Positions 28,521-58,814 of a stretch of 64,000 nucleotides of DNA are shown here, in pieces. Each line of letters begins with the position of its first letter. Positions within the stretch are counted from its first letter, which is position 1. The notes beneath the pieces were generated by a model, which saw only the letters and a list, made by a program, of their open reading frames with translations, was not told the origin of the DNA and did not search any database. The stretch covers positions 24-64,023 of the forward strand of contig JAZDIT010000044.1 of the NCBI GenBank assembly GCA_043804755.1, given 5' to 3'. Both the position numbers and the translations under genes were made by a program. Origin of the DNA: Patescibacteria group bacterium (GTDB taxonomy: Bacteria; Patescibacteriota; Minisyncoccia; Minisyncoccales; JAQTPW01).

Positions 28521-29204
28521 ATGCTACACGAGATTATAGATAAATTTTATTTGGACAGGCAAAAAGACAAAGATCAACGCCATTTTTATATTACCGATGC
28601 GGGAAAATGTCCGCGGGCTATATTCTTCAAATTCAAAAACGCTCCCAGGGAAGAAATGGGTGCGAATATTCTGAGAATGTTCGATCACGGAGATCACATC
28701 CATCAGTTGATAATGAAGCCTTTACTTTCCGTCAGGGAAATCCATGTGGTCGCTTCCGAAGTGAATATCCCGCCCCAGGCGCTTATTTCGGGCCGGGCAG
28801 ATGCGATTTTAAGCGATGGGAAAGATTTGTATGTTCTTGATATAAAAAGCATGAACAGCATGATTTTTAAAAACCTTGAAGCTGCCAAAGAAGAAAATAT
28901 TGATCAAGTCCAGCTATATTTGCACTATTTCAGGATTCCCAAAGGGTTGCTCTTATACGTTGATAAGGACAGGCTCGATTTGAAAGAGTTTGAGGTGGTC
29001 TATGACAAAGAAAGGGCGGAAAATCTTCTAAAAAATTTGAGTGAATTGAAAGAAAAAATAGATAAAAACACTATCCCTACGAGAATCGCAAGCTATCCCG
29101 ATGATTGGCAATGTAAATATTGCGCTTTCAAAGAAATTTGCAAAATGGCGAATGGCGGTGAGATTGGCTGGGAGGATTTCAAAAAAAAGATAGAAAAAAG
29201 TTAA
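28521..29204 (+). CDS. Cas4-like PD-(D/E)xK nuclease with Fe-S cluster cysteines (DUF83/RecB-nuclease family), standalone
   Basis: N-terminal Cys (GKCP), GRADAIL, LDIK, QLYLHY motifs; C-terminal C-x2-C-x5-C (CKYCAFKEIC). Confidence 0.7.
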   Translation: MLHEIIDKFYLDRQKDKDQRHFYITDAGKCPRAIFFKFKNAPREEMGANILRMFDHGDHIHQLIMKPLLSVREIHVVASEVNIPPQALISGRADAILSDGKDLYVLDIKSMNSMIFKNLEAAKEENIDQVQLYLHYFRIPKGLLLYVDKDRLDLKEFEVVYDKERAENLLKNLSELKEKIDKNTIPTRIASYPDDWQCKYCAFKEICKMANGGEIGWEDFKKKIEKS

Positions 29205-30655: not shown

Positions 30656-30892
30656 ATGGCTGCTAACATCGTCATCAGGACCCAGAGTAATACTGTCCAT
30701 GTGTTTGATAAAAATAACAATCCGGTTCCCTTATTTGAGGGGAAGTATGAGGAGGTAAAATATCGAATTTGCTTGCAGTTTCAAGGAAACGACACAATTT
30801 TTGTAAATCAAACGCGACCGGGTCAGAACGACTTGGTCAAGAAAAGGGAGTGGCAATATGAAAGCGGAAGAACTCAAAAAGGAATTCTATGA
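30656..30892 (+). CDS. Hypothetical protein (78 aa), GC-rich island
   Basis: ORF with promoter plus ribosome-binding site; about 50% GC against a 38% background. Confidence 0.5.
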   Translation: MAANIVIRTQSNTVHVFDKNNNPVPLFEGKYEEVKYRICLQFQGNDTIFVNQTRPGQNDLVKKREWQYESGRTQKGIL

Positions 30893-31580
30893 CGCCGGTA
30901 AGTTTACTGAAGGTCTGGCTGCGGTCATCAAGGCACTTCAGGATTCGACTGGGAACGATGATCCTGAATGGCCCAATTTGCTCGCCCTAAAAGCGTGGTT
31001 CCATTACCGCCTCAAAGACTATGCTCTCGCCCAGGATTCGGCAAAGGAAGCAGGGCCGGTTTTATGGGCCCGAGAGTGTTTGGCCTACATTGCCGCTTAC
31101 GTGGATAAAGATGATGCGGCATTGCGGCAATTTCTGGATGAGCTCGGCGATAACATCAACGTCACCAATGCCATGATCATTCGTGCCAGAGATAATGACA
31201 GCACTATTGCTCACGGCGAAGTCCTCATGAGAACACTTCTCATCCGCGGCGAAGGGGTAGAGACTGCTAATCTCTATCATAACGCCGGTCGTTACTTCCT
31301 GGCAAAGCCGAGGGACGACAGCGACTACGTTCTGGCTCTGGGATTTTTCACGGTCGCTGCGGCTCTATATGGCACTACTGGAAATTGGCATCACCGGGGC
31401 GCTCTCGCCTTCTGGCGATCTAGTGCCCTAGAACATTTTATGGACAAAAAATCTGCCATAAGCGCCGTCGAAGATTCTCTCCGCTGCTGGACCGAGGCGA
31501 TAGCTCTTGATCCGACAAACAAGCAGCATCTGGAAAAATGGCAAGGCGCCATTAACCGGTTAAGCGAACTCCGGAAATAA
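30858..31580 (+). CDS. Hypothetical alpha-helical protein (240 aa), GC-rich island
   Basis: AAAAGGGAG ribosome-binding site before the ATG; GC-rich codons; no recognisable family. Confidence 0.55.
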   Translation: MKAEELKKEFYDAGKFTEGLAAVIKALQDSTGNDDPEWPNLLALKAWFHYRLKDYALAQDSAKEAGPVLWARECLAYIAAYVDKDDAALRQFLDELGDNINVTNAMIIRARDNDSTIAHGEVLMRTLLIRGEGVETANLYHNAGRYFLAKPRDDSDYVLALGFFTVAAALYGTTGNWHHRGALAFWRSSALEHFMDKKSAISAVEDSLRCWTEAIALDPTNKQHLEKWQGAINRLSELRK

Positions 31581-32979: not shown

Positions 32980-33993
32980 ATGTCTATATTCGTAAGAAAA
33001 ATCGGAATCGATTTGGGGACCTGCAACTCGGTCGTATTTATACCGGGCAAAGGGCCCGTTTTACAGGAGCCGTCAGTAGTGGCGGTGACTTTGGATGACA
33101 ACAAAATTCTGGCGGTAGGGGAGGCGGCAAAAGAAATGACAGGAAGGACTCCCGACACAATAAAAGTGTATCGTCCTTTGCGGGACGGCGTCATAGCCGA
33201 TTACAGGGTTACCCAGGCAATGCTTAAACATTTCATCGATAAAGTTTCGGGTACCCTGAAATTTTTAAAACCTGAATTGTTGATAGGAGTTCCCGCAGGC
33301 ATTACTTCCACGGAAAGGAGGGCGGTTATCGAAGCCGGAGTCTCGGCAGGAGCCAAAGCGGTTTATATAGCGAAAGAACCAATACTGTCTGCTATCGGAG
33401 CGGGGGTTCCCATTAATTCCTGTTCGGGACACATGATTGTAGATATTGGCGGAGGAACGTCGGAAGTGGCTGTAATTTCTTTGGGAGGAATAGTAACCTG
33501 CCATTCTCTGAGAGTAGCTGGAGACAAACTTGATGCCGCAGTTTCCGATTACATAAAGAAAAAATATAATCTCGCAATCGGGGAGCAGACTGCCGAAGAA
33601 ATCAAAATAAGAGTGGGTACCGCTTTGCCCGAAAAAGAGGAAAAATTCATCGAAATAAGAGGAAGAGATCTGGTTTTGGGTCTTCCCAAAAATATCAGAG
33701 TTTCTTCAAGCGAAGTTTGTGAAGCAATGAGCGACACTCTCGCCGAAATAATCCAGGTCATAAAATTGGTATTGAGGGACACTCCGCCGGAATTGTCGGC
33801 GGACATTATGGATAAAGGCATGGTTTTAGCCGGCGGCGGGGCTTTACTGCGGAATATCGACAAATTGATTTCCCAGAATACCGGAGTTCCGTGCATCCTG
33901 GCTGAAGATCCTCTGTTGTGCGTTGCAAAGGGAACGGGCTTGATGCTTGAAAGCTTGGACGTTTATAAAAAGAGCTTAATGAGCAAAAAATGA
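32980..33993 (+). CDS. mreB: Rod shape-determining protein MreB (paralog 1)
   Basis: GIDLGTCNSVVF ... actin-fold MreB family. Confidence 0.9.
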   Translation: MSIFVRKIGIDLGTCNSVVFIPGKGPVLQEPSVVAVTLDDNKILAVGEAAKEMTGRTPDTIKVYRPLRDGVIADYRVTQAMLKHFIDKVSGTLKFLKPELLIGVPAGITSTERRAVIEAGVSAGAKAVYIAKEPILSAIGAGVPINSCSGHMIVDIGGGTSEVAVISLGGIVTCHSLRVAGDKLDAAVSDYIKKKYNLAIGEQTAEEIKIRVGTALPEKEEKFIEIRGRDLVLGLPKNIRVSSSEVCEAMSDTLAEIIQVIKLVLRDTPPELSADIMDKGMVLAGGGALLRNIDKLISQNTGVPCILAEDPLLCVAKGTGLMLESLDVYKKSLMSKK

Positions 33994-36550: not shown

Positions 36551-37795
36551 ATGCGCCAATCAAAACTTTTTACAAAGATTTCAAAAGAATTTCCAAAAGA
36601 TGAAAGCAGCATCAACGCCCGTTTTCTGATAAGAGCCGGTTTTATCGACAAATTAATGTCGGGCGTATTTTCATTTCTTCCGTTGGGTTTGGCTGTCATG
36701 GGAAAAATTGAAAACATCATCCGCGAAGAAATGAACAAAATCGGAGGCCAGGAAATTTTATTGCCGGCTCTGCATCCCAAAGAAAACTGGCAGCTTACCG
36801 ACAGATGGAAATATCCCGAGATGTTTAAACTCAAGAATCGGGCGGAAAAAGATTTCAGTCTGGGGTGGACTCATGAGGAAATCGTCACGCCTTTGATCAA
36901 AAAATTCGTAAAATCCTACAAAGATCTTCCGGTTTACGTTTACCAGTTTCAGGATAAATTTCGCGACGAATTGCGGGCAAAATCCGGTCTTTTGAGAGGG
37001 ATGGAATTCACAATGAAAGATCTCTATTCTTTTCATGCGAGTGAGAGCGATTTAGACGAATATTATGAAAAGGTAAAAGGAGCTTATTTCAGGATTTTCG
37101 AGCGCTGCGGTCTTGGGAAAGTGACTTTTCTGACTTTGGCCTCGGGGGGCGCTTTCAGCAAATATTCCCACGAATTTCAGACGATAACCCCCTATGGGGA
37201 AGACGAGATACATCTCTGCCCTAAATGCAAAATTGCCGTCAATAAGGAAATTATCGAAGACGAAAAACATATGTGTCCCGGATGCAAACGCAAGAATATG
37301 GAAGCCAAGAAATCAATTGAAGTCGGCAATATTTTCAAACTCGGAAATAAATTTTCAGAACCCTTCGGGCTGAAATTCAAGGAAAAAGACGGCAGTGAAA
37401 AGTTATTGTCGATGGGATGCTACGGAATAGGTTTGGGGCGATTAATGGGAGCCGTCGTCGAAGTTCACCACGACGAAAAGGGAATTATCTGGCCAAGAAC
37501 CGTATCTCCTTTCCTGGCGCATCTGATTGAAATAAAGGGACAAAATTCGAAAGTTAAAAAAGAAGCCGAAAAACTTTATCAGGTTTTACAGAAAAAAGAA
37601 GTAGAAGTATTATATGACGATAGGGACGACAAAACTGCCGGAGAAAAGTTCGCAGAGTGCGATCTCATCGGGATTCCCGTTAGAATAGTCGTTTCCGAGA
37701 GAACTTTGGAAAGGGGCTGCGCCGAAATCAAAGGAAGGCAGGAAGAAAAAACAAAATTAATAAAATTAAGCCAAGTCACAAAAAATGTTGGATAA
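36551..37795 (+). CDS. proS: Prolyl-tRNA synthetase, short bacterial-type without editing insertion; Cys4 insert
   Basis: Class II motifs; CPKC...CPGC insertion. Confidence 0.85.
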   Translation: MRQSKLFTKISKEFPKDESSINARFLIRAGFIDKLMSGVFSFLPLGLAVMGKIENIIREEMNKIGGQEILLPALHPKENWQLTDRWKYPEMFKLKNRAEKDFSLGWTHEEIVTPLIKKFVKSYKDLPVYVYQFQDKFRDELRAKSGLLRGMEFTMKDLYSFHASESDLDEYYEKVKGAYFRIFERCGLGKVTFLTLASGGAFSKYSHEFQTITPYGEDEIHLCPKCKIAVNKEIIEDEKHMCPGCKRKNMEAKKSIEVGNIFKLGNKFSEPFGLKFKEKDGSEKLLSMGCYGIGLGRLMGAVVEVHHDEKGIIWPRTVSPFLAHLIEIKGQNSKVKKEAEKLYQVLQKKEVEVLYDDRDDKTAGEKFAECDLIGIPVRIVVSERTLERGCAEIKGRQEEKTKLIKLSQVTKNVG

Positions 37796-38837
37796 AATTT
37801 GGAAAATATTTTCGGAAGACATCGCAATTGATTTGGGAACGGCAAATTCCGAGGTTTATGTAAGGGGGCGGGGAATAATCATCCAGGAACCGAGCGTCGT
37901 TGCCATCAACCAAAAAACCGGGCAGATTCTTGCAATAGGCGAGGAGGCGAAAAAAATGGTTGGCAGAACGCCGGCTCATATCGTGGCTACAAGACCTCTG
38001 AGATCGGGCGTGATTTCCGATTTTGAAGTGACCGAGCAGATGCTCAGATATTTTATTGAAAAAGCCCAACGGAAAAAATTCGCTTTGTCGGCCAGGCCAA
38101 GAGTTATAATAGGTATTCCTTCCGGGGTGACGGAGGTGGAGAAAAAAGCCGTGATAGATGCCGCAAAATCGGCCGGAGCGAGGGAAGTTTTTTTGATTGA
38201 AGAACCAATGGCTGCTGCGATAGGCGCACGGCTTCCGGTACAGGAAGCGGGCGGGAATTTCATAGTCGATATCGGCGGAGGAACCGCGGAAATCGCAATA
38301 ATCTCCCTTGGCGGAATAGTTTTATCCAAAAGTTTGAGGATAGCGGGCGACAAACTGAATGAAGACATAATCCAGTTTGCTCAGGAAGAATATAAGCTCC
38401 TTATCGGGGAAAGAACCGCCGAAGCGATTAAAATCGGAATAGGATCGGCTTATCCGCTGAAGGAAAAAAGGGAGCTTCCCATGCGCGGAAGGAACTTGGT
38501 AACGGGCCTTCCTGAAGAAATACTCGTTTCGGATGAAGATATAAGGAGAGCCATGGAAAAATCCGTAAAGAGAATTGTCACTGAAATCAAAACCGCAGTG
38601 GAAGAGAGTCCGCCGGAATTGCTGGCTGACATCATGGCGTCGGGAATTTATTTTTCGGGCGGGGGATCTTTGTTGCGCGGATTGGATATTCTTGTGGCTA
38701 AAGAAACGAAAATTCCCACGCGCCTTATTGAAGACCCGATGACTGCGGTTGTGAGGGGAGCGGGAATGGTTCTGGAAAATCTTGATGAACTCGAAGACGT
38801 GCTCGTGGAAACTGCGGAACTCGAACCGCCAAAATAA
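37785..38837 (+). CDS. mreB: Rod shape-determining protein MreB (paralog 2)
   Basis: AIDLGTANSEVYV...; full MreB fold. Confidence 0.9.
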   Translation: MLDKIWKIFSEDIAIDLGTANSEVYVRGRGIIIQEPSVVAINQKTGQILAIGEEAKKMVGRTPAHIVATRPLRSGVISDFEVTEQMLRYFIEKAQRKKFALSARPRVIIGIPSGVTEVEKKAVIDAAKSAGAREVFLIEEPMAAAIGARLPVQEAGGNFIVDIGGGTAEIAIISLGGIVLSKSLRIAGDKLNEDIIQFAQEEYKLLIGERTAEAIKIGIGSAYPLKEKRELPMRGRNLVTGLPEEILVSDEDIRRAMEKSVKRIVTEIKTAVEESPPELLADIMASGIYFSGGGSLLRGLDILVAKETKIPTRLIEDPMTAVVRGAGMVLENLDELEDVLVETAELEPPK

Positions 38838-41559: not shown

Positions 41560-42867
41560 TTAGTTGATGTTAAGCTCCTCCTTCAGGAGGCGTTTCACTT
41601 CGGCAACGGGATCGGCCGCGCCGAAAATCTGTCGGCCCATCACGAGCTTGCTGGCGCCATTGTTTCTGGCATTGACCGGAGTATCTACCCTCCCTTGGTC
41701 GTTTGGATCAACACCAGGCGAACGGATTCCCGGAGTCGCGAGTTCCTTGTCGGGATAAAGGCGCTTGAGTTCTGACACCTCTTCCGCAGAACAGACGAAA
41801 CCATGGACGCCGGCGCGATTGGCAATCTCCGCCAGCTTCAGGACTTCTTCCATCGGGCGGCGTGTATAAATTTCCTCACAGGTGCCTTCCTTGAGCGAGG
41901 TCAGTACGGTAACTGCGAGAACCTTTGTCGGAGTGTCTTTGAGTAACTCGACCGCTGCCTTTGCCATCTCCTCCCCACCCGATGCATGGATGGTTGCGGC
42001 CCATGGTGGGTTGGGAAGCAAGTGTTTGATGATATTCTCCACAGTGTTCTTGATGTCATGGCATTTGAGGTCTGCCATGACCCGGCCGTACACCTGCAGG
42101 TTCGGGATGAGGTCCTTGATCCCCTCGTTTAGGAGGAGGTCGTTAGCCTTCAGGATACATCCTGAAGTTCTCAACTGGTCGATCACCGGCAGGATTTCCT
42201 CCCAGCTCTTTCCGTCCAGAGCGACTATGAGGGGATTTTTCTGTTCCACCTCGGCATCGCACCGCAACATGAGCCCGCTCGTAATGAGATATTTGCGGAT
42301 GTCATGAAGAGTTAAACCGGGCCAGATGCCTACCTTGATGCCCATTTCCTGGAACTTCTTTTTCCATCCCTGTTGCCGGTCAACCAGCACGATGTGGGGC
42401 AGAACTTGGAGTCCCATGGAAACGCACTTTAGGTATGGCGCTAGTTTGGAGGCGCCGTCGGTTATGACGTCATCGATTATGCACACGCTTTCATCGAATC
42501 TTGCCTCGCCGATGACGTCTGCTTTGGCCACCCTTCCTTCTTTCGGTTTCTCCCGAAGGGTAACGTAGGGGATGCCCGTTTTGACGGATATGAGGCCAGC
42601 AAAACAGCTGACCGCATCGGGCACTTCCGCGAACCGGTCGGGGCCGAGGCGCCGCAGTGCGTTGGCATATGTCTCCGCTAAGAAATCTAGCGCCTTTGGG
42701 TAGTTTCTGGCGTCTCTCAGATTAATATAAATATCTGTCTTCCCGCCACTCTTAAGCGGCAGGCTCCGGGCGTTGTCGGACTTGATCAAACCGTAATGGA
42801 GGAGCTCCTCTATTACAGAGATCTGTTCCCATTTAGTCAGCCAGGGTTGTCCAGAAATGTCCATCAT
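41560..42867 (-). CDS. Fused orotate phosphoribosyltransferase / OMP decarboxylase (PyrE-PyrF, UMP-synthase-like); GC-rich, probably acquired
   Basis: N-terminal PRPP-binding motif (IIDDVITDGAS); C-terminal OMPdecase motifs (LIVALDG, DLKCHDIKNT); about 55% GC; GGAGGGAG ribosome-binding site. Confidence 0.75.
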   Translation of the reverse strand: MMDISGQPWLTKWEQISVIEELLHYGLIKSDNARSLPLKSGGKTDIYINLRDARNYPKALDFLAETYANALRRLGPDRFAEVPDAVSCFAGLISVKTGIPYVTLREKPKEGRVAKADVIGEARFDESVCIIDDVITDGASKLAPYLKCVSMGLQVLPHIVLVDRQQGWKKKFQEMGIKVGIWPGLTLHDIRKYLITSGLMLRCDAEVEQKNPLIVALDGKSWEEILPVIDQLRTSGCILKANDLLLNEGIKDLIPNLQVYGRVMADLKCHDIKNTVENIIKHLLPNPPWAATIHASGGEEMAKAAVELLKDTPTKVLAVTVLTSLKEGTCEEIYTRRPMEEVLKLAEIANRAGVHGFVCSAEEVSELKRLYPDKELATPGIRSPGVDPNDQGRVDTPVNARNNGASKLVMGRQIFGAADPVAEVKRLLKEELNIN

Positions 42868-49354: not shown

Positions 49355-49894
49355 ATGGCACAAAGACCATCAAAAGACGAATATTATCTCAATATTTCGA
49401 GACAAATCGGTTTAAGATCAACCTGTTTTAGAAATAAAGGGGGCGCGCTTATTGTTCGCGAAGATCAGATTGTTGCCACCGGTTATATCGGCGCTCCGAG
49501 GAAGACAAAAGACTGTTTGGAAAGAGGTGAATGCTTAAGAGACAGATTAAAAATTCCTCACGGGAAAAGGTACGAGATGTGTCGTTCGGTGCATGCCGAA
49601 ATGAATGCGATAGTCAACGCAGCCAGAGCTGGAGTAAGTCTTCTCGGCGCGGATATTTACATTTCCTTTGAAAATCCTAAAGATGGTACTCCTAGAGACA
49701 GTTTTCCGTGCTTTATATGCAAAAAATTAATCATCAATTGCGGAATAAACAGGGTAGTTTGTTCTACCGCAGAAGATAAAATGATAACCTTTCGGGTGTC
49801 TGATTGGGTTAAAGATTGGCAGGAAAAGGATCTCGTGGACGATGAACATCAATTCGGCACAGATTTAAATCTCAAGGAAGGACTCAAGGAATAA
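49355..49894 (+). CDS. dCMP deaminase (cytidine/deoxycytidylate deaminase family)
   Basis: HAEMNAI ... PCFICKKLI zinc-binding motifs. Confidence 0.85.
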   Translation: MAQRPSKDEYYLNISRQIGLRSTCFRNKGGALIVREDQIVATGYIGAPRKTKDCLERGECLRDRLKIPHGKRYEMCRSVHAEMNAIVNAARAGVSLLGADIYISFENPKDGTPRDSFPCFICKKLIINCGINRVVCSTAEDKMITFRVSDWVKDWQEKDLVDDEHQFGTDLNLKEGLKE

Positions 49895-49895
49895 C

Positions 49896-50468
49896 ATGCA
49901 AAATAAAATTGTTTGCGTTGTGGGTATGGCGGGTTCGGGAAAGAGCATAGTGTCTGATGAGCTGGTTAAAACCGGCTTTTTATATTTAAGATTCGGTCAG
50001 ATCACACTTGATAAAATCAAAGAAGATGGACTTGAAGTAAATGAGGTTAATGAAAAAAAAGTGAGGGAGGATTTTAGAAAACAGTTTGGAATGGGGGCTT
50101 TTGCAATTTTGAACATTCCTAAAATTGAAGAATTGCTAAAAAAGACAAATGTGGCAGTTGACGGACTTTACAGCTGGTCGGAATACAGAATCCTAAAGGA
50201 GAAATACGGCGATTCGATGTATGTTGTGGCAGTGTATGCTCCGCCGAAAATGAGGTATGATAGATTAGAAAATCGGAGTGCCGAAAATGACAATAATAAC
50301 CGTTTCCGGCCGTTCACAAGAAAAGAAGCAAAGAATAGAGATTACGCAGAGATCGAAAACATAGAGAAGGGGGGACCGATCGCGATGGCGGATTTCACCA
50401 TAATGAATACCGGTACGACAGATGAACTTAAAAAAGAGATTAATAAATTTTTAACGCTTATTGGATAA
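49896..50468 (+). CDS. P-loop nucleoside/nucleotide kinase of unknown specificity
   Basis: GMAGSGKS Walker A; NMP-kinase-like size; sits between dCMP deaminase and tmk. Confidence 0.45.
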   Translation: MQNKIVCVVGMAGSGKSIVSDELVKTGFLYLRFGQITLDKIKEDGLEVNEVNEKKVREDFRKQFGMGAFAILNIPKIEELLKKTNVAVDGLYSWSEYRILKEKYGDSMYVVAVYAPPKMRYDRLENRSAENDNNNRFRPFTRKEAKNRDYAEIENIEKGGPIAMADFTIMNTGTTDELKKEINKFLTLIG

Positions 50469-50473
50469 ACACC

Positions 50474-51106
50474 ATGCAAAAAAACACATATCCCGGGAAA
50501 TTCATAGTTTTTGAAGGTTTGGACGGTTCGGGGCAGAGCACGCAGGCAGGAAAATTAGTTGATTTTTTGAACGAACCGAAACAAAAATTAAAATTCGGGC
50601 ATACCGGTGCTCATCTTACAAAAGAGCCTACTTCATACTTGATAGGAGGTCTCCTCAGAAGCCAATTGAGTGGAGATTGGAAATCTTCGCAGGAATGTCT
50701 CCAATTGCTTTTTTCAGCCGATAGAGCACATCATTTGGAGAAAGAAATTATTCCCTTGCTTGAAAGAGGAGTAACTGTTGTTTGCGATCGTTATTTTTTT
50801 TCAACAATGGCTTACGGTTCTTTGGATATAAAAGATAAAAAATGGTTGGTAGATTTGAATAGAAATTTTCTGTATCCCGATATAACTTTTTTATTAAAAG
50901 TTTCTCCGAAAGTCTGTATAGAAAGAATTAATAAAACTCGTTACGGAGTAACTTTATTTGAGAAAGAGCAATCATTAGCGAAGGTATGGCAGAATTTTAT
51001 TGTTCTACCAAAGAAATTCAAAAACATCCATGTTATTAATGGAGAAAAATCAGTTGACAAAGTTTTTGAAGACATACGGAAGATTATAAATGGGAAATTA
51101 GTATAA
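50474..51106 (+). CDS. tmk: Thymidylate kinase
   Basis: FIVFEGLDGSGQST P-loop; DRY motif. Confidence 0.88.
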   Translation: MQKNTYPGKFIVFEGLDGSGQSTQAGKLVDFLNEPKQKLKFGHTGAHLTKEPTSYLIGGLLRSQLSGDWKSSQECLQLLFSADRAHHLEKEIIPLLERGVTVVCDRYFFSTMAYGSLDIKDKKWLVDLNRNFLYPDITFLLKVSPKVCIERINKTRYGVTLFEKEQSLAKVWQNFIVLPKKFKNIHVINGEKSVDKVFEDIRKIINGKLV

Positions 51107-52401
51107 TGGCGAAAATCTTCGTTTACGATGAATTTGCACCCGAGGACATTGCGATGATGCAGGCTCTTTATTCGAGGAGCCCAAAAAGCGTTACAGAGCA
51201 TGTTGAACAGGTAAAACAGACTGGCTCGGGCAAGTTCATGGAACGGTTTTATGTCGGTTACGGACATGCGAGCATTGCCGATTGCGGAAGTACCACCATT
51301 TTTATCGAAGGAATCAGCATTTTGGGGGATAAAGCAATCCAGGATTGGCCTTTTTACAGCGGACAGGAAACAAGCACCCGGTATGTTGATATGGCCAAAA
51401 GACCGATTGTCGATCCGATAGGCACGGGAGCATCGAAAAAGATACTCGATAAATGGATGGCATTCTACGCGGAAAATCTGCCCTTGATGGAAAGATTTTT
51501 AACAGGAAAGTACCCCAAAAAAGAATCCGACGATGAAAATGTTTACAAAAAAGCAATCAAAGCAAGAGCATTTGACATTTTGAGGGCATTTTTGCCAGCA
51601 GGAATCACAACACAACTTAGCTGGCACACAAATCTGAGGCAGGCTTGGGACAAGCTTTCCATTTTAAGGTATCACCCGTTAGATGAGGTCAGAACGACTG
51701 CAGAAAGCATCCTTGCAAAATTAAAAGAAAAGTATCCGCATAGTTTCAGCCATCGTCCGACGGAAGAGCAGGAGAGTTACAGGGAATATGCCGGCAAGAA
51801 TTACTTTTTATTCAATCCGCCGAAAGAAGAGGTGGTTGAATTTTCTTTAAAAACAGACATTAAGAAGGAAGAGTTGGAGAAATATAAGGATATAACAGAG
51901 AACAGACCCCCAAGGACGGGTCTCCCCATCTTCCTTTTCGAGTTGGGAATCTTGACCTTTGATCTTATTTTAGATTACGGCTCTTTCAGAGATTTGCACA
52001 GACACAGAAATGGGATTTGTCGGGTTCCGCTTTTGAGAACGGATATAGGGTTCAATCCCTGGTATCTGGAAGAATTGCCGGCCGATATAAAAGAAAAAGC
52101 TCTAAAACTTATAGAAGAACAGAAAGAGACAATCACGAAATTAAATGCGCCTCCGGAGATTTTGCAATATTATATCGCTCTCGGGTTCAATGTGCCATGC
52201 CACATTACTTACGGTTTGCCCGCGACCGTTTATGTCGTAGAATTGAGATGCGGGAAAATGGTACACCCGACTTTGAGAAAAATTGCGTTCAAGATGAGAG
52301 AGGCCTTGCTTGATAGATTTCCGAATCTTAAAATGAATTGCGACCTGGAACCCAGCGAATGGGACGTTTCAAGGGGTCTTCAGGATATAATAAAGAAATA
52401 A
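51106..52401 (+). CDS. ThyX-like (flavin-dependent thymidylate synthase family) protein, apparent tandem pseudo-dimer
   Basis: Second half has an RHR motif (LHRHRNG); first half has a GH...S..E.S.RY block resembling the ThyX substrate-binding region; 431 aa is about twice a ThyX monomer. Confidence 0.45.
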   Translation: MAKIFVYDEFAPEDIAMMQALYSRSPKSVTEHVEQVKQTGSGKFMERFYVGYGHASIADCGSTTIFIEGISILGDKAIQDWPFYSGQETSTRYVDMAKRPIVDPIGTGASKKILDKWMAFYAENLPLMERFLTGKYPKKESDDENVYKKAIKARAFDILRAFLPAGITTQLSWHTNLRQAWDKLSILRYHPLDEVRTTAESILAKLKEKYPHSFSHRPTEEQESYREYAGKNYFLFNPPKEEVVEFSLKTDIKKEELEKYKDITENRPPRTGLPIFLFELGILTFDLILDYGSFRDLHRHRNGICRVPLLRTDIGFNPWYLEELPADIKEKALKLIEEQKETITKLNAPPEILQYYIALGFNVPCHITYGLPATVYVVELRCGKMVHPTLRKIAFKMREALLDRFPNLKMNCDLEPSEWDVSRGLQDIIKK

Positions 52402-52403
52402 AT

Positions 52404-53096
52404 ATGGAAATTTCAAAATTAATCGACCAGACATTTTTAAAAGCTGATGCGACAGATGAAGAGATAAAAAAGGTTTGCGAAGAGACGGCGAAATACGGAT
52501 TCCGCGGGCTTTGTGTTTTACCCCAGCACACGAAATTGGCCAAAGAGTTGCTGAGGAATTCCGGAGTCAAAGTCACGACTCTGATTGATGAGCCGACTGG
52601 TGCGAGTTTGCATGAAAGAAGAATAGAAATGGTAAGAAAGGCGAAAGAGGACGGTTCCGATGAAGTTGATGTTGTTATGAAGATCGACATTTTCAAAAAC
52701 GGAAAATACGGTGAGGTTTTGGCCGATCTCAAGGAAATTACACCGATTCTTCCCACGAAAGTGATCATTGGTTCCGGTTATCTTACCGACGAAGAGATTA
52801 AGAAAGCATCTGAAACAGTAAAGGAATCCGGAGCAATTTGCGTAAAGACCGCTACCGTGAATGATCCTTTGGATCATTCGGAATTGGATGAAAAGACGAA
52901 ACATGTGAGAATAATGCGGGAATCAGCACCAGGATTATTGATAAAAGCGGCAGGTTCAATAAGAACTTTAGCTGATTTAAAACAGATATTTGAAGCCGGA
53001 GCTGATATCATCGGAACCAGTTCCGGTGTTGAAATCGTAAATGAAGCAACCGGTGCCGGGATAACAACTGACGAGGAGTGGAGGAAAATAGAGTAG
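52404..53096 (+). CDS. deoC: Deoxyribose-phosphate aldolase
   Basis: DeoC family (IDQTFLKADATDEEI, VKT Schiff-base lysine region); start moved to the ATG at 52404. Confidence 0.8.
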   Translation: MEISKLIDQTFLKADATDEEIKKVCEETAKYGFRGLCVLPQHTKLAKELLRNSGVKVTTLIDEPTGASLHERRIEMVRKAKEDGSDEVDVVMKIDIFKNGKYGEVLADLKEITPILPTKVIIGSGYLTDEEIKKASETVKESGAICVKTATVNDPLDHSELDEKTKHVRIMRESAPGLLIKAAGSIRTLADLKQIFEAGADIIGTSSGVEIVNEATGAGITTDEEWRKIE

Positions 53097-57218: not shown

Positions 57219-58814
57219 TTAATGAATCTCCTCTTTCTTTTCCTTTATGAAATATCTCCATTGTTCCAAAAGTTCTACGAAAATCTGGAAAGGCAGGTCT
57301 ATGAGGGCGATTACGAATACCAGAGCAGTGTTATACTTGTTCCATTGTCCGGAAAGCCATTTACCCAGTCTTATGAAGGGGAGCGAAATCCAGTCAATCA
57401 AGAATCCGAGAAATCCACCCTTTTCTTCCTCAATAGATAATTCTTTCGCTCTTTCTTTTATTTTTGTACCGGCAAAGAAAATGAGCGAAAAAAACAGGAC
57501 AAATATTATTCTTGATGGCCAACTGAAGTCTAATTTTCCAAGCCCCCACCAGATCAGACAGAATGTCAGGAAAAAAGTTGCGGAATAAAGTATGAAAATT
57601 GTGCCCTCCATTATGGCATTTTTTATGTAAGCGGAATGTATCGGATAAACGTCTTTTTTCTCGGTTTCGTAAACAACCTTCATCGTTTCCATAATGACTT
57701 TTTCCAGATTGCTTTTCCTGGGAGGTGTGATGCTCAGAACTAAAATAAGCATCAGAAGCGGGGGAATCGCGACATTCAGCCCCATGGCCTGCCAGCTGAA
57801 TTGGTGGAGTATTTTTGTGTCGATGGGCCATTCAATCAGAAGGGCCAGAAGCATTTTTGTAATGAAAATGGAAATCGTGCTGTAGGCCGCCGCACGCGAC
57901 ACCCTGGATTTCTGCTGCCGTAATCTCAACTGGTAAAATTCCCTTATTTTGGTTTCAAGAATTTCAGGATTACTCAAATTCTCATAGGCTCTGGTCGGGT
58001 CGTTTGATAAAATGTCGCTTAAAATCAAGTAAGGAGTGTCGTATTTTTCGCAGACTCTGTAAAATTTTTCAGAAAGCGGATGACGAAGCTGTTTCGAAAT
58101 ATCATCCCAGATAGAATAGACGTTTTTTGTCACTTCATCCAGTACGCTTTTGTTGGATTCTTCCAAAAGGAGGTTCCATTGCGGGAATCTTCTTTTCAGC
58201 AGATGATAAACGACGATTGGGGCATCCAGCTTGAAAAGAGCCTTATGGACGGCGATATAAATTTGGATGTTTTTTTCTTCATCGGACAGGCCGTCTATAA
58301 GCTTAATTTTCTCCTTCATCAGATCCGACATATACTCTATCATTATTCTTTCTTCCCTTGACGGATCAAGTATTTCTTCCACTTCGCATGCCGCAATCGT
58401 GGACATCCAGTCCTGAAGCCGGACTCTGCTTTTCCCTCCTTCCGGATGGCTGTTTTCGATTATGAATATATATTTGTCCAGTACTTTCTGGACGGTGCCT
58501 ATTTTCGATTCGGGTATTTTGTCGTTCGGGAAATGGCCCCCTCTTATCAATTCGAGCACGAACGGCTGGGCCTCGATTTTTTGCCCCACTCTCAGAAATA
58601 ATTTTCTTTTGAGAATTCTTTCTATGGCACCTCTCCTGAGAAGGTGTTCTTCGCGCCAGTCTATTACGCCCCTGATTTTTTCGTAAAAAGCGGCAACCTG
58701 GCTGGCAACTTCATCGACGTGTATCGTAGCGACGCCCTCTTTTTTCTGGAGGGAATCGTACCAGGCTTTGTGCTGCTGCAGCAATTTTTGCGTTTGTTGG
58801 GATAATTCTGTCAT
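57219..58814 (-). CDS. Hypothetical protein with a large soluble N-terminal domain and a C-terminal polytopic membrane region
   Basis: 531-aa ORF; several hydrophobic helices in the last 230 aa; no recognised motif. Confidence 0.5.
   Translation of the reverse strand: MTELSQQTQKLLQQHKAWYDSLQKKEGVATIHVDEVASQVAAFYEKIRGVIDWREEHLLRRGAIERILKRKLFLRVGQKIEAQPFVLELIRGGHFPNDKIPESKIGTVQKVLDKYIFIIENSHPEGGKSRVRLQDWMSTIAACEVEEILDPSREERIMIEYMSDLMKEKIKLIDGLSDEEKNIQIYIAVHKALFKLDAPIVVYHLLKRRFPQWNLLLEESNKSVLDEVTKNVYSIWDDISKQLRHPLSEKFYRVCEKYDTPYLILSDILSNDPTRAYENLSNPEILETKIREFYQLRLRQQKSRVSRAAAYSTISIFITKMLLALLIEWPIDTKILHQFSWQAMGLNVAIPPLLMLILVLSITPPRKSNLEKVIMETMKVVYETEKKDVYPIHSAYIKNAIMEGTIFILYSATFFLTFCLIWWGLGKLDFSWPSRIIFVLFFSLIFFAGTKIKERAKELSIEEEKGGFLGFLIDWISLPFIRLGKWLSGQWNKYNTALVFVIALIDLPFQIFVELLEQWRYFIKEKKEEIH

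Follow-up and report, generated by a model that had tools for sequence, protein, structure and literature searches.

The thymidylate synthase ThyX is the sole enzyme of its kind in many pathogens, where it is a drug target. To our knowledge, all mechanistic and structural work on ThyX concerns a symmetric homotetramer. Leduc et al. reportedly described in 2004 the shared active sites of tetrameric ThyX, working with the ordinary single-domain enzyme and not with a natural fusion, and it is this sharing of sites that would make complementary loss in a fused pair of domains viable. The biochemically characterised ThyX of Chlamydia, at about 529 aa, might be of the long type that is described below.

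In the canonical enzyme, each active site has been shown to lie at the junction of three subunits of the homotetramer (PMC3498832, the PBCV-1 structure paper). One subunit (A) provides the RHR motif and M. tuberculosis R199, which is equivalent to T. maritima R174 (PMC6514825, section 3.1), a second (B) provides M. tuberculosis S71 and R190, which hold the FAD phosphates, and a third (C) provides R87, the backbone of Q103, S105, R107 and Y108, the last three being equivalent to T. maritima S88, R90 and Y91 (PMC6514825). Likewise, in PBCV-1 ThyX, Q75 and R182 belong to one monomer, and a different monomer carries S88 and Q89 (PMC3498832). It has also been demonstrated that R174 activates dUMP, and that S88, R90 and Y91 have their role in the step of the flavin carbinolamine (PMC8316439). 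The premise of an earlier note on the DNA studied here, that ThyX sites are built at subunit interfaces, thus agrees with the published structures, which divide these residue sets among subunits.

Much less has been written about duplicated forms of the enzyme. The only earlier mention found in the literature is a remark that a ThyX of Chloroflexi "contains a domain duplication" and "has not been characterized" (Biol Direct 2009, PMC3224940). A literature search that reached a minority of subscription journals returned no split-active-site analysis, structure or assay of the long ThyX, a form that carries a ThyX annotation already but that seems never to have been characterised.

A double-length ThyX gene in a thymidylate operon

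The window, a stretch of 64,000 nucleotides from a Patescibacteria group bacterium, contains an open reading frame of 431 aa at 51106..52401 on the plus strand, with an ATG start, exactly as first claimed. ThyX of T. maritima has 220 aa (its sequence was confirmed against PDB 1KQ4/1O26), and the description of the protein as about twice the length of a canonical ThyX monomer is therefore correct. The NCBI record of the exact protein reads [quoted passage not shown]. In a compact series of genes on the same strand, that for ThyX comes fourth:

49355..49894 (+), dCMP deaminase, which supplies dUMP (Pfam PF00383)
49896..50468 (+), P-loop (AAA_18) nucleotide-kinase-like protein, with a weak guanylate-kinase-like PHROG match
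50474..51106 (+), thymidylate kinase (Tmk), for which dTMP is the substrate (Pfam PF02223, E 3.7e-39)
51106..52401 (+), long (two-domain) ThyX, 431 aa, whose ATG overlaps the stop codon of tmk by one base (TAATG)
52404..53096 (+), DeoC-like aldolase, whose ATG lies 2 nt past the ThyX stop

Translational coupling of the ThyX gene is probable within this operon, which produces dUMP and uses dTMP, and the P-loop AAA_18 kinase encoded between the dCMP deaminase and Tmk may act in the same pathway as a dNMP kinase. Parts of this neighbourhood recur in related loci of the candidate phyla radiation (CPR). The dCMP deaminase is found upstream of or adjacent to the long ThyX in 43 of 80 such loci, Tmk is linked to it in 31 and the P-loop kinase lies near it in 17, while linkage to the DeoC-like aldolase is not conserved (1 of 80). 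In Pfam scans, neither ThyA nor a canonical ThyX was found in the window or in the 80 related loci.

Natural fusions of the long ThyX to deaminases are encoded outside the window, one to a dCTP deaminase (PF22769; P0092, 660 aa) and three to a dCMP deaminase (PF00383; P0472, P0477 and P0482, 613-629 aa). These fusions give Rosetta-stone support for dUMP as the substrate, and, together with the operon and its synteny, they point to dUMP as the substrate and dTMP as the product.

Both halves carry a ThyX domain

Both halves of the protein are ThyX domains, which occupy the following positions:

51106..51771 (+), N-terminal ThyX domain, aa 1-222, with the residues of the dUMP and flavin side (Pfam Thy1 and hhalign)
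51811..52398 (+), C-terminal ThyX domain, aa 236-431 (structural model, Foldseek and hhalign)

The whole protein matched the Pfam Thy1 family (PF02511) in two stretches, with 69.2 bits against a gathering score of 24.8 (E 5.2e-19). Taken alone, the N half matched nearly the whole profile (positions 16-191; 56.3 bits, E 4.6e-15), and the C half matched its last 85 positions with a score that lies below the gathering score of 24.8 (17.1 bits, E 0.0049). The earlier note had named the lack of a Thy1 match for either half as the result that would refute its reading; what was found is a strong match for the N half and a sub-threshold one for the C half, and the reading is thus not refuted. When the halves were aligned to ThyX, as the same note had proposed, residues 43-216 of the N half were matched by hhalign to positions 42-204 of a T. 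maritima-type ThyX profile (E 4.8e-6, 86% probability). The C half was matched to the same type of profile with E 6.7e-4 and a probability of 27%, which leaves the assignment of equivalent residues uncertain beyond the RHR and ELR anchors.

For the C half, structural comparison was decisive. When residues 236-431 were modelled by themselves with AlphaFold (pLDDT 81.2, pTM 0.78), Foldseek matched the model 143 times in the PDB at E<=0.001, at best with E 6e-6, and with TM values of 0.5-0.65; among the 50 matches listed of these 143, all 50 are ThyX chains. The full-length model (pLDDT 79, pTM 0.77) likewise had ThyX in 50 of the 50 matches listed, at a query-normalised TM of <=0.32, which means that no solved structure spans both domains. 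Sequence searches of the PDB with the protein, the family profile and the C-half profile returned weak N-half matches or none. Confidence in the monomer model is lowest at residues 11-60 and 82-88, two stretches in which H54 and the loop preceding S90 are found. In ThyX, the matching regions become ordered around FAD and the substrate.

The duplication is invisible to direct self-comparison, as BLASTP gave no alignment of the N half with the C half and hhalign gave a weak one (E 0.005). The protein also does not reach the cut-off of the NCBIfam equivalog model TIGR02170 (24.3 bits versus 87.9). Its two ThyX domains, which are fused and have diverged from each other, very probably make up a thymidylate synthase, by predicted activity.

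Active-site residues are divided between the halves

Residues were mapped with hhalign columns and with phmmer alignments to the M. tuberculosis and C. glutamicum enzymes, and are given in T. maritima numbering unless stated; the equivalences are those of a profile alignment and not of a ligand-bound structure. The main elements of the two domains are:

51265..51273 (+), H54-A-S56 in GYGH54AS56, where S56 is M. tuberculosis S71, the FAD phosphate contact from subunit B
51343..51351 (+), D80-W81-P82, at the canonical RHR positions of the N domain by profile alignment
51358..51384 (+), S85-G-Q-E88-T-S90-T-R92-Y93, the second part of the motif (S83, E86, S88, R90 and Y91)
51583..51639 (+), R160 (R147) to R178 (R165, M. 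tuberculosis R190)
51988..52008 (+), R295-D-L-H-R299-H300-R301 (R74, Q75 and R78-H79-R80)
52246..52266 (+), R381 (R174, the dUMP-activating arginine) to H387 (a possible H178 equivalent), both present in 137 of 137 relatives

The N half keeps H54 (H53), S56 (M. tuberculosis S71), K76 (R74), E88 (E86), S90 (S88), R92 (R90), Y93 (Y91), R160 (R147), R178 (R165, M. tuberculosis R190) and H190 (H178), and it has lost RHR, in place of which it has DWP, as well as the equivalent of R174, where the alignment has a gap and the position is not conserved. The C half keeps R295 (R74), R299-H300-R301 (RHR), R381 (R174) and possibly H387 (H178). Here, RHR is followed by N-G-I-C-R-V-P-L-L, which puts I304, V307 and L309 at the positions of S83, E86 and S88; Y355 stands at the position of R147, and there is no equivalent of H53.

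No single domain contains a contiguous RHRxxSxxxxSxR, and the motif is complete only across both halves. The N-half motif region, DWPFYSGQETSTR, is without RHR, while the C-half motif region, RHRNGICRVPLLR, is without both serines, and its position 13, which corresponds to R90, is a threonine in most relatives. Each of H53, R78-H79-R80, E86, S88, R90, Y91, R147, R165 and R174 occurs once per chain, in either the N or the C half. In terms of the canonical site, the C half keeps exactly the set of subunit A, and the N half keeps the sets of subunits B and C.

These results largely confirm what had been read from the sequence at first. The GH..S..E.S.RY block that the earlier note assigned to the first half is present as GYGH54AS56 and S85-G-Q-E88-T-S90-T-R92-Y93, and the second half does retain RHR without the serine-rich continuation, as L-H-R299-H300-R301-N-G-I-C-R has no Ser/Glu/Ser. 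The placement of FYS where RHR would be needs correction, since the alignment puts D80-W81-P82 there and makes F83-Y84-S85 the following "xxS".

Conservation and distribution

A search of 1.8 billion cluster representatives gave 2042 clusters with a relationship to the query, among which 497 reached E<=1e-30, and the best 150 of the 2042 are nearly all full-length two-domain proteins of about 420-500 aa. Conservation was measured in 137 of these, diverse representatives of the family that are 35-57% identical to the query. The complete residue split was found in 136 of the 137, and RHR in the N half in none (0 of 137). Eleven residues are invariant in all 137, namely S90, R92, D157, R295, D296, R299, R301, Y320, R381, H387 and R423. 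H54 is present in 133 relatives, S56 in 136, R160 in 129 and R178 in 115, and across the set of FAD- and dUMP-binding residues, conservation is 84-100%.

The same split is also seen in more distant homologues, including a jumbo Vibrio phage protein (30% identity), gp020 of Microcystis phage Ma-LMM01 (26%), a protein from an Acidimicrobiaceae MAG and one from a MAG labelled Methanosarcina. With 136 of 137 representatives and these phage and MAG homologues in agreement, the complementary degeneration is ancient and under selection and not the drift of a single lineage; it is real and does not reflect chance.

Relatives are encoded in at least 581 species-representative genomes. The genome scan covered the closest 80 loci, all of them from Patescibacteria, and breadth beyond this group rests on the few named matches (the Acidimicrobiaceae MAG, the Methanosarcina MAG and the phages). 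A very large share of the CPR/Patescibacteria appears to have the long form as its standard thymidylate synthase. The gene itself is an ordinary one, a housekeeping thymidylate synthase of CPR bacteria that belongs to a known family and represents a little-studied architectural variant.

A proposed tetramer-like dimer and alternative readings

The best explanation, and a probable one, is a two-domain ThyX with complementary halves that carries out flavin-dependent dTMP synthesis as a dimer with two live sites. In the proposed mechanism, flavin-dependent conversion of dUMP to dTMP would be performed by an enzyme whose two fused ThyX domains take complementary roles. The C-terminal domain would be fit only for the first role, with RHR and the dUMP-activating arginine, and the N-terminal domain only for the second, with the serine and arginine that hold the FAD phosphates, and the third, with the S88/R90/Y91 loop over dUMP and flavin. 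Because the roles are divided in this way, two chains should pair as a tetramer-like dimer, in which two N-terminal and two C-terminal domains would reproduce the architecture of the tetramer. Under 222 symmetry, the sites would be formed by the domains (A,B,C), (B,A,D), (C,D,A) and (D,C,B). With C-terminal domains in the places of A and D, and N-terminal domains in those of B and C, two of these sites would be complete and two dead, and each live site would combine a C-terminal domain, an N-terminal domain and the N-terminal domain of the partner chain (N').

As published structures assign the two residue sets to different subunits of one site, a homodimer mimicking the tetramer is the likeliest reading. 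It is rather likely that the long ThyX forms such a homodimer, with two live sites instead of four, the geometry and number of sites being those predicted from the residue split. The fused pseudo-dimer that the earlier note had put forward is thus supported, in that both halves are ThyX, the split is present in 136 of 137 relatives and the residue sets match subunit roles; its oligomeric state is what these roles would suggest.

The same note had raised a different possibility, that of a divergent ThyX paralogue with another chemistry or substrate, e.g. another nucleotide C5-methylase or hydroxymethylase. ThyX-like enzymes do occur in nucleoside-antibiotic pathways, as exemplified by PolB of polyoxin synthesis, and a change of function would fit a score so far below the thyX equivalog cut-off, a sequence identity of less than 20% to characterised ThyX, and the family-specific invariant residues D157, R267, Y320, R391 and R423, which are without a canonical counterpart. 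However, all residues for dUMP activation and flavin binding are kept somewhere in the chain, the gene is embedded with a dCMP deaminase and Tmk and is fused elsewhere to a dCMP or dCTP deaminase that would feed it dUMP, and, found in at least 581 species genomes of bacteria with reduced genomes, it is a conserved gene of the housekeeping type and not one of secondary metabolism. Gene context and the deaminase fusions thus disfavour a paralogue of different function, which we regard as improbable.

The division of residues also bears on whether the N-terminal domain could be catalytic alone, oligomerising as an ordinary ThyX, with the C-terminal domain as a degenerate structural or regulatory appendage. 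Such an arrangement would agree with the N half being far more ThyX-like in sequence, and with the C half being without most of the motif residues. Yet RHR and the equivalent of R174, on which FAD binding and dUMP activation depend (PMC6514825; PMC8316439), are missing from the N half of essentially every member, whereas R299, R301 and R381 are fully invariant in the C half, which is overall as strongly conserved as the N half; catalysis by the N-terminal domain alone is accordingly very doubtful. An artefact of assembly or gene calling, in which two adjacent thyX-like genes would have been fused, was rejected and deserves practically no credence, as nothing was found in its favour, thousands of homologues of the same length come from independent assemblies without a stop codon or frame shift, and the full-length gene is also present in cultured phage genomes.

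Returning to the two-domain enzyme with complementary halves, a further elaboration is that it is an obligate asymmetric enzyme, whose two dead pseudo-sites have been repurposed and are lined by D157, R267, Y320, R391 and R423. We consider this unlikely. If so, possible uses would include a regulatory nucleotide site or a dedicated entry for NAD(P)H or a one-carbon donor, and the repurposing might be related to the supply of the methylene group in folate-poor CPR bacteria and phages.

If the proposed mechanism is true, the long ThyX would show cleanly how an oligomeric enzyme can subfunctionalise once it has been duplicated internally, and it would settle the part that each subunit plays in a shared active site. 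It would also provide a two-site enzyme with a defined asymmetry, which would be useful for dissecting half-site behaviour. The protein is moderately interesting as an example of complementary subfunctionalisation of a shared active site. In addition, the failure of the CPR long ThyX to match the curated equivalog model matters for metabolic reconstruction of these organisms.

Other features of the window

Several observations were made elsewhere in the window. A 435-aa open reading frame at 41563-42867 (-) has an OMP decarboxylase domain only in its C-terminal 225 aa, and its N-terminal 210 aa gave no Pfam or PHROG match. MreB is encoded by two full-length paralogues within 5 kb, at 32980-33993 and 37785-38837 (+), with MreB_Mbl matches of about 450 bits each, and an open reading frame for a PD-(D/E)XK or Cas4-like nuclease follows the rpoA region at 28521-29204 (+). 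The open reading frames at 57219-58814 (-; 531 aa) and 30858-31580 (+; 240 aa) matched no Pfam family at E<=1e-5.

Comparison with known systems

A "ThyX-like domain" is mentioned in a review of archaeal methionine sulfoxide reductases (PMC6211008), which is possibly another non-canonical use of the fold. The duplicated ThyX of Chloroflexi mentioned above (PMC3224940) comes with no residue analysis and is likened to the CPR protein by its description only.

The two-domain architecture itself is shared with phage proteins, namely gp020 of Microcystis phage Ma-LMM01 (491 aa), phrog_36506, and proteins of the jumbo Vibrio phages vB_VmeM-Yong and BONAISHI. The phage proteins match the query with TMq values of 0.63-0.77 in structural comparison and with a sequence coverage of 97%, but they are only 26-30% identical to it, and they are annotated as "thymidylate synthase", "thymidylate synthase-like" or "hypothetical". 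The PHROGs family of the long ThyX has 491 positions. Two-domain ThyX genes with the same split of catalytic residues occur in jumbo Vibrio phages, where they carry the annotation "hypothetical protein", and in cyanophages of the Ma-LMM01 type; they are located at L081:3920-5305 in Vibrio phage vB_VmeM-Yong MS32 and at L082:2890-4365 in Microcystis phage Ma-LMM01 (gp020).

The closest characterised systems are the canonical ThyX enzymes, such as T. maritima TM0449, M. tuberculosis Rv2754c and PBCV-1 A674R, whose fold is common to both halves of the protein described here, and whose overall catalytic and cofactor-binding residues and pathway context match those of the long ThyX. While the canonical enzyme is a single domain of about 220-260 aa with a contiguous RHRxxSxxxxSxR, which forms a homotetramer with four equivalent sites and one FAD per domain and depends on NAD(P)H and methylene-folate to convert dUMP to dTMP, the long ThyX has two fused domains between which the motif is split, and at most two of its sites are predicted to be complete.
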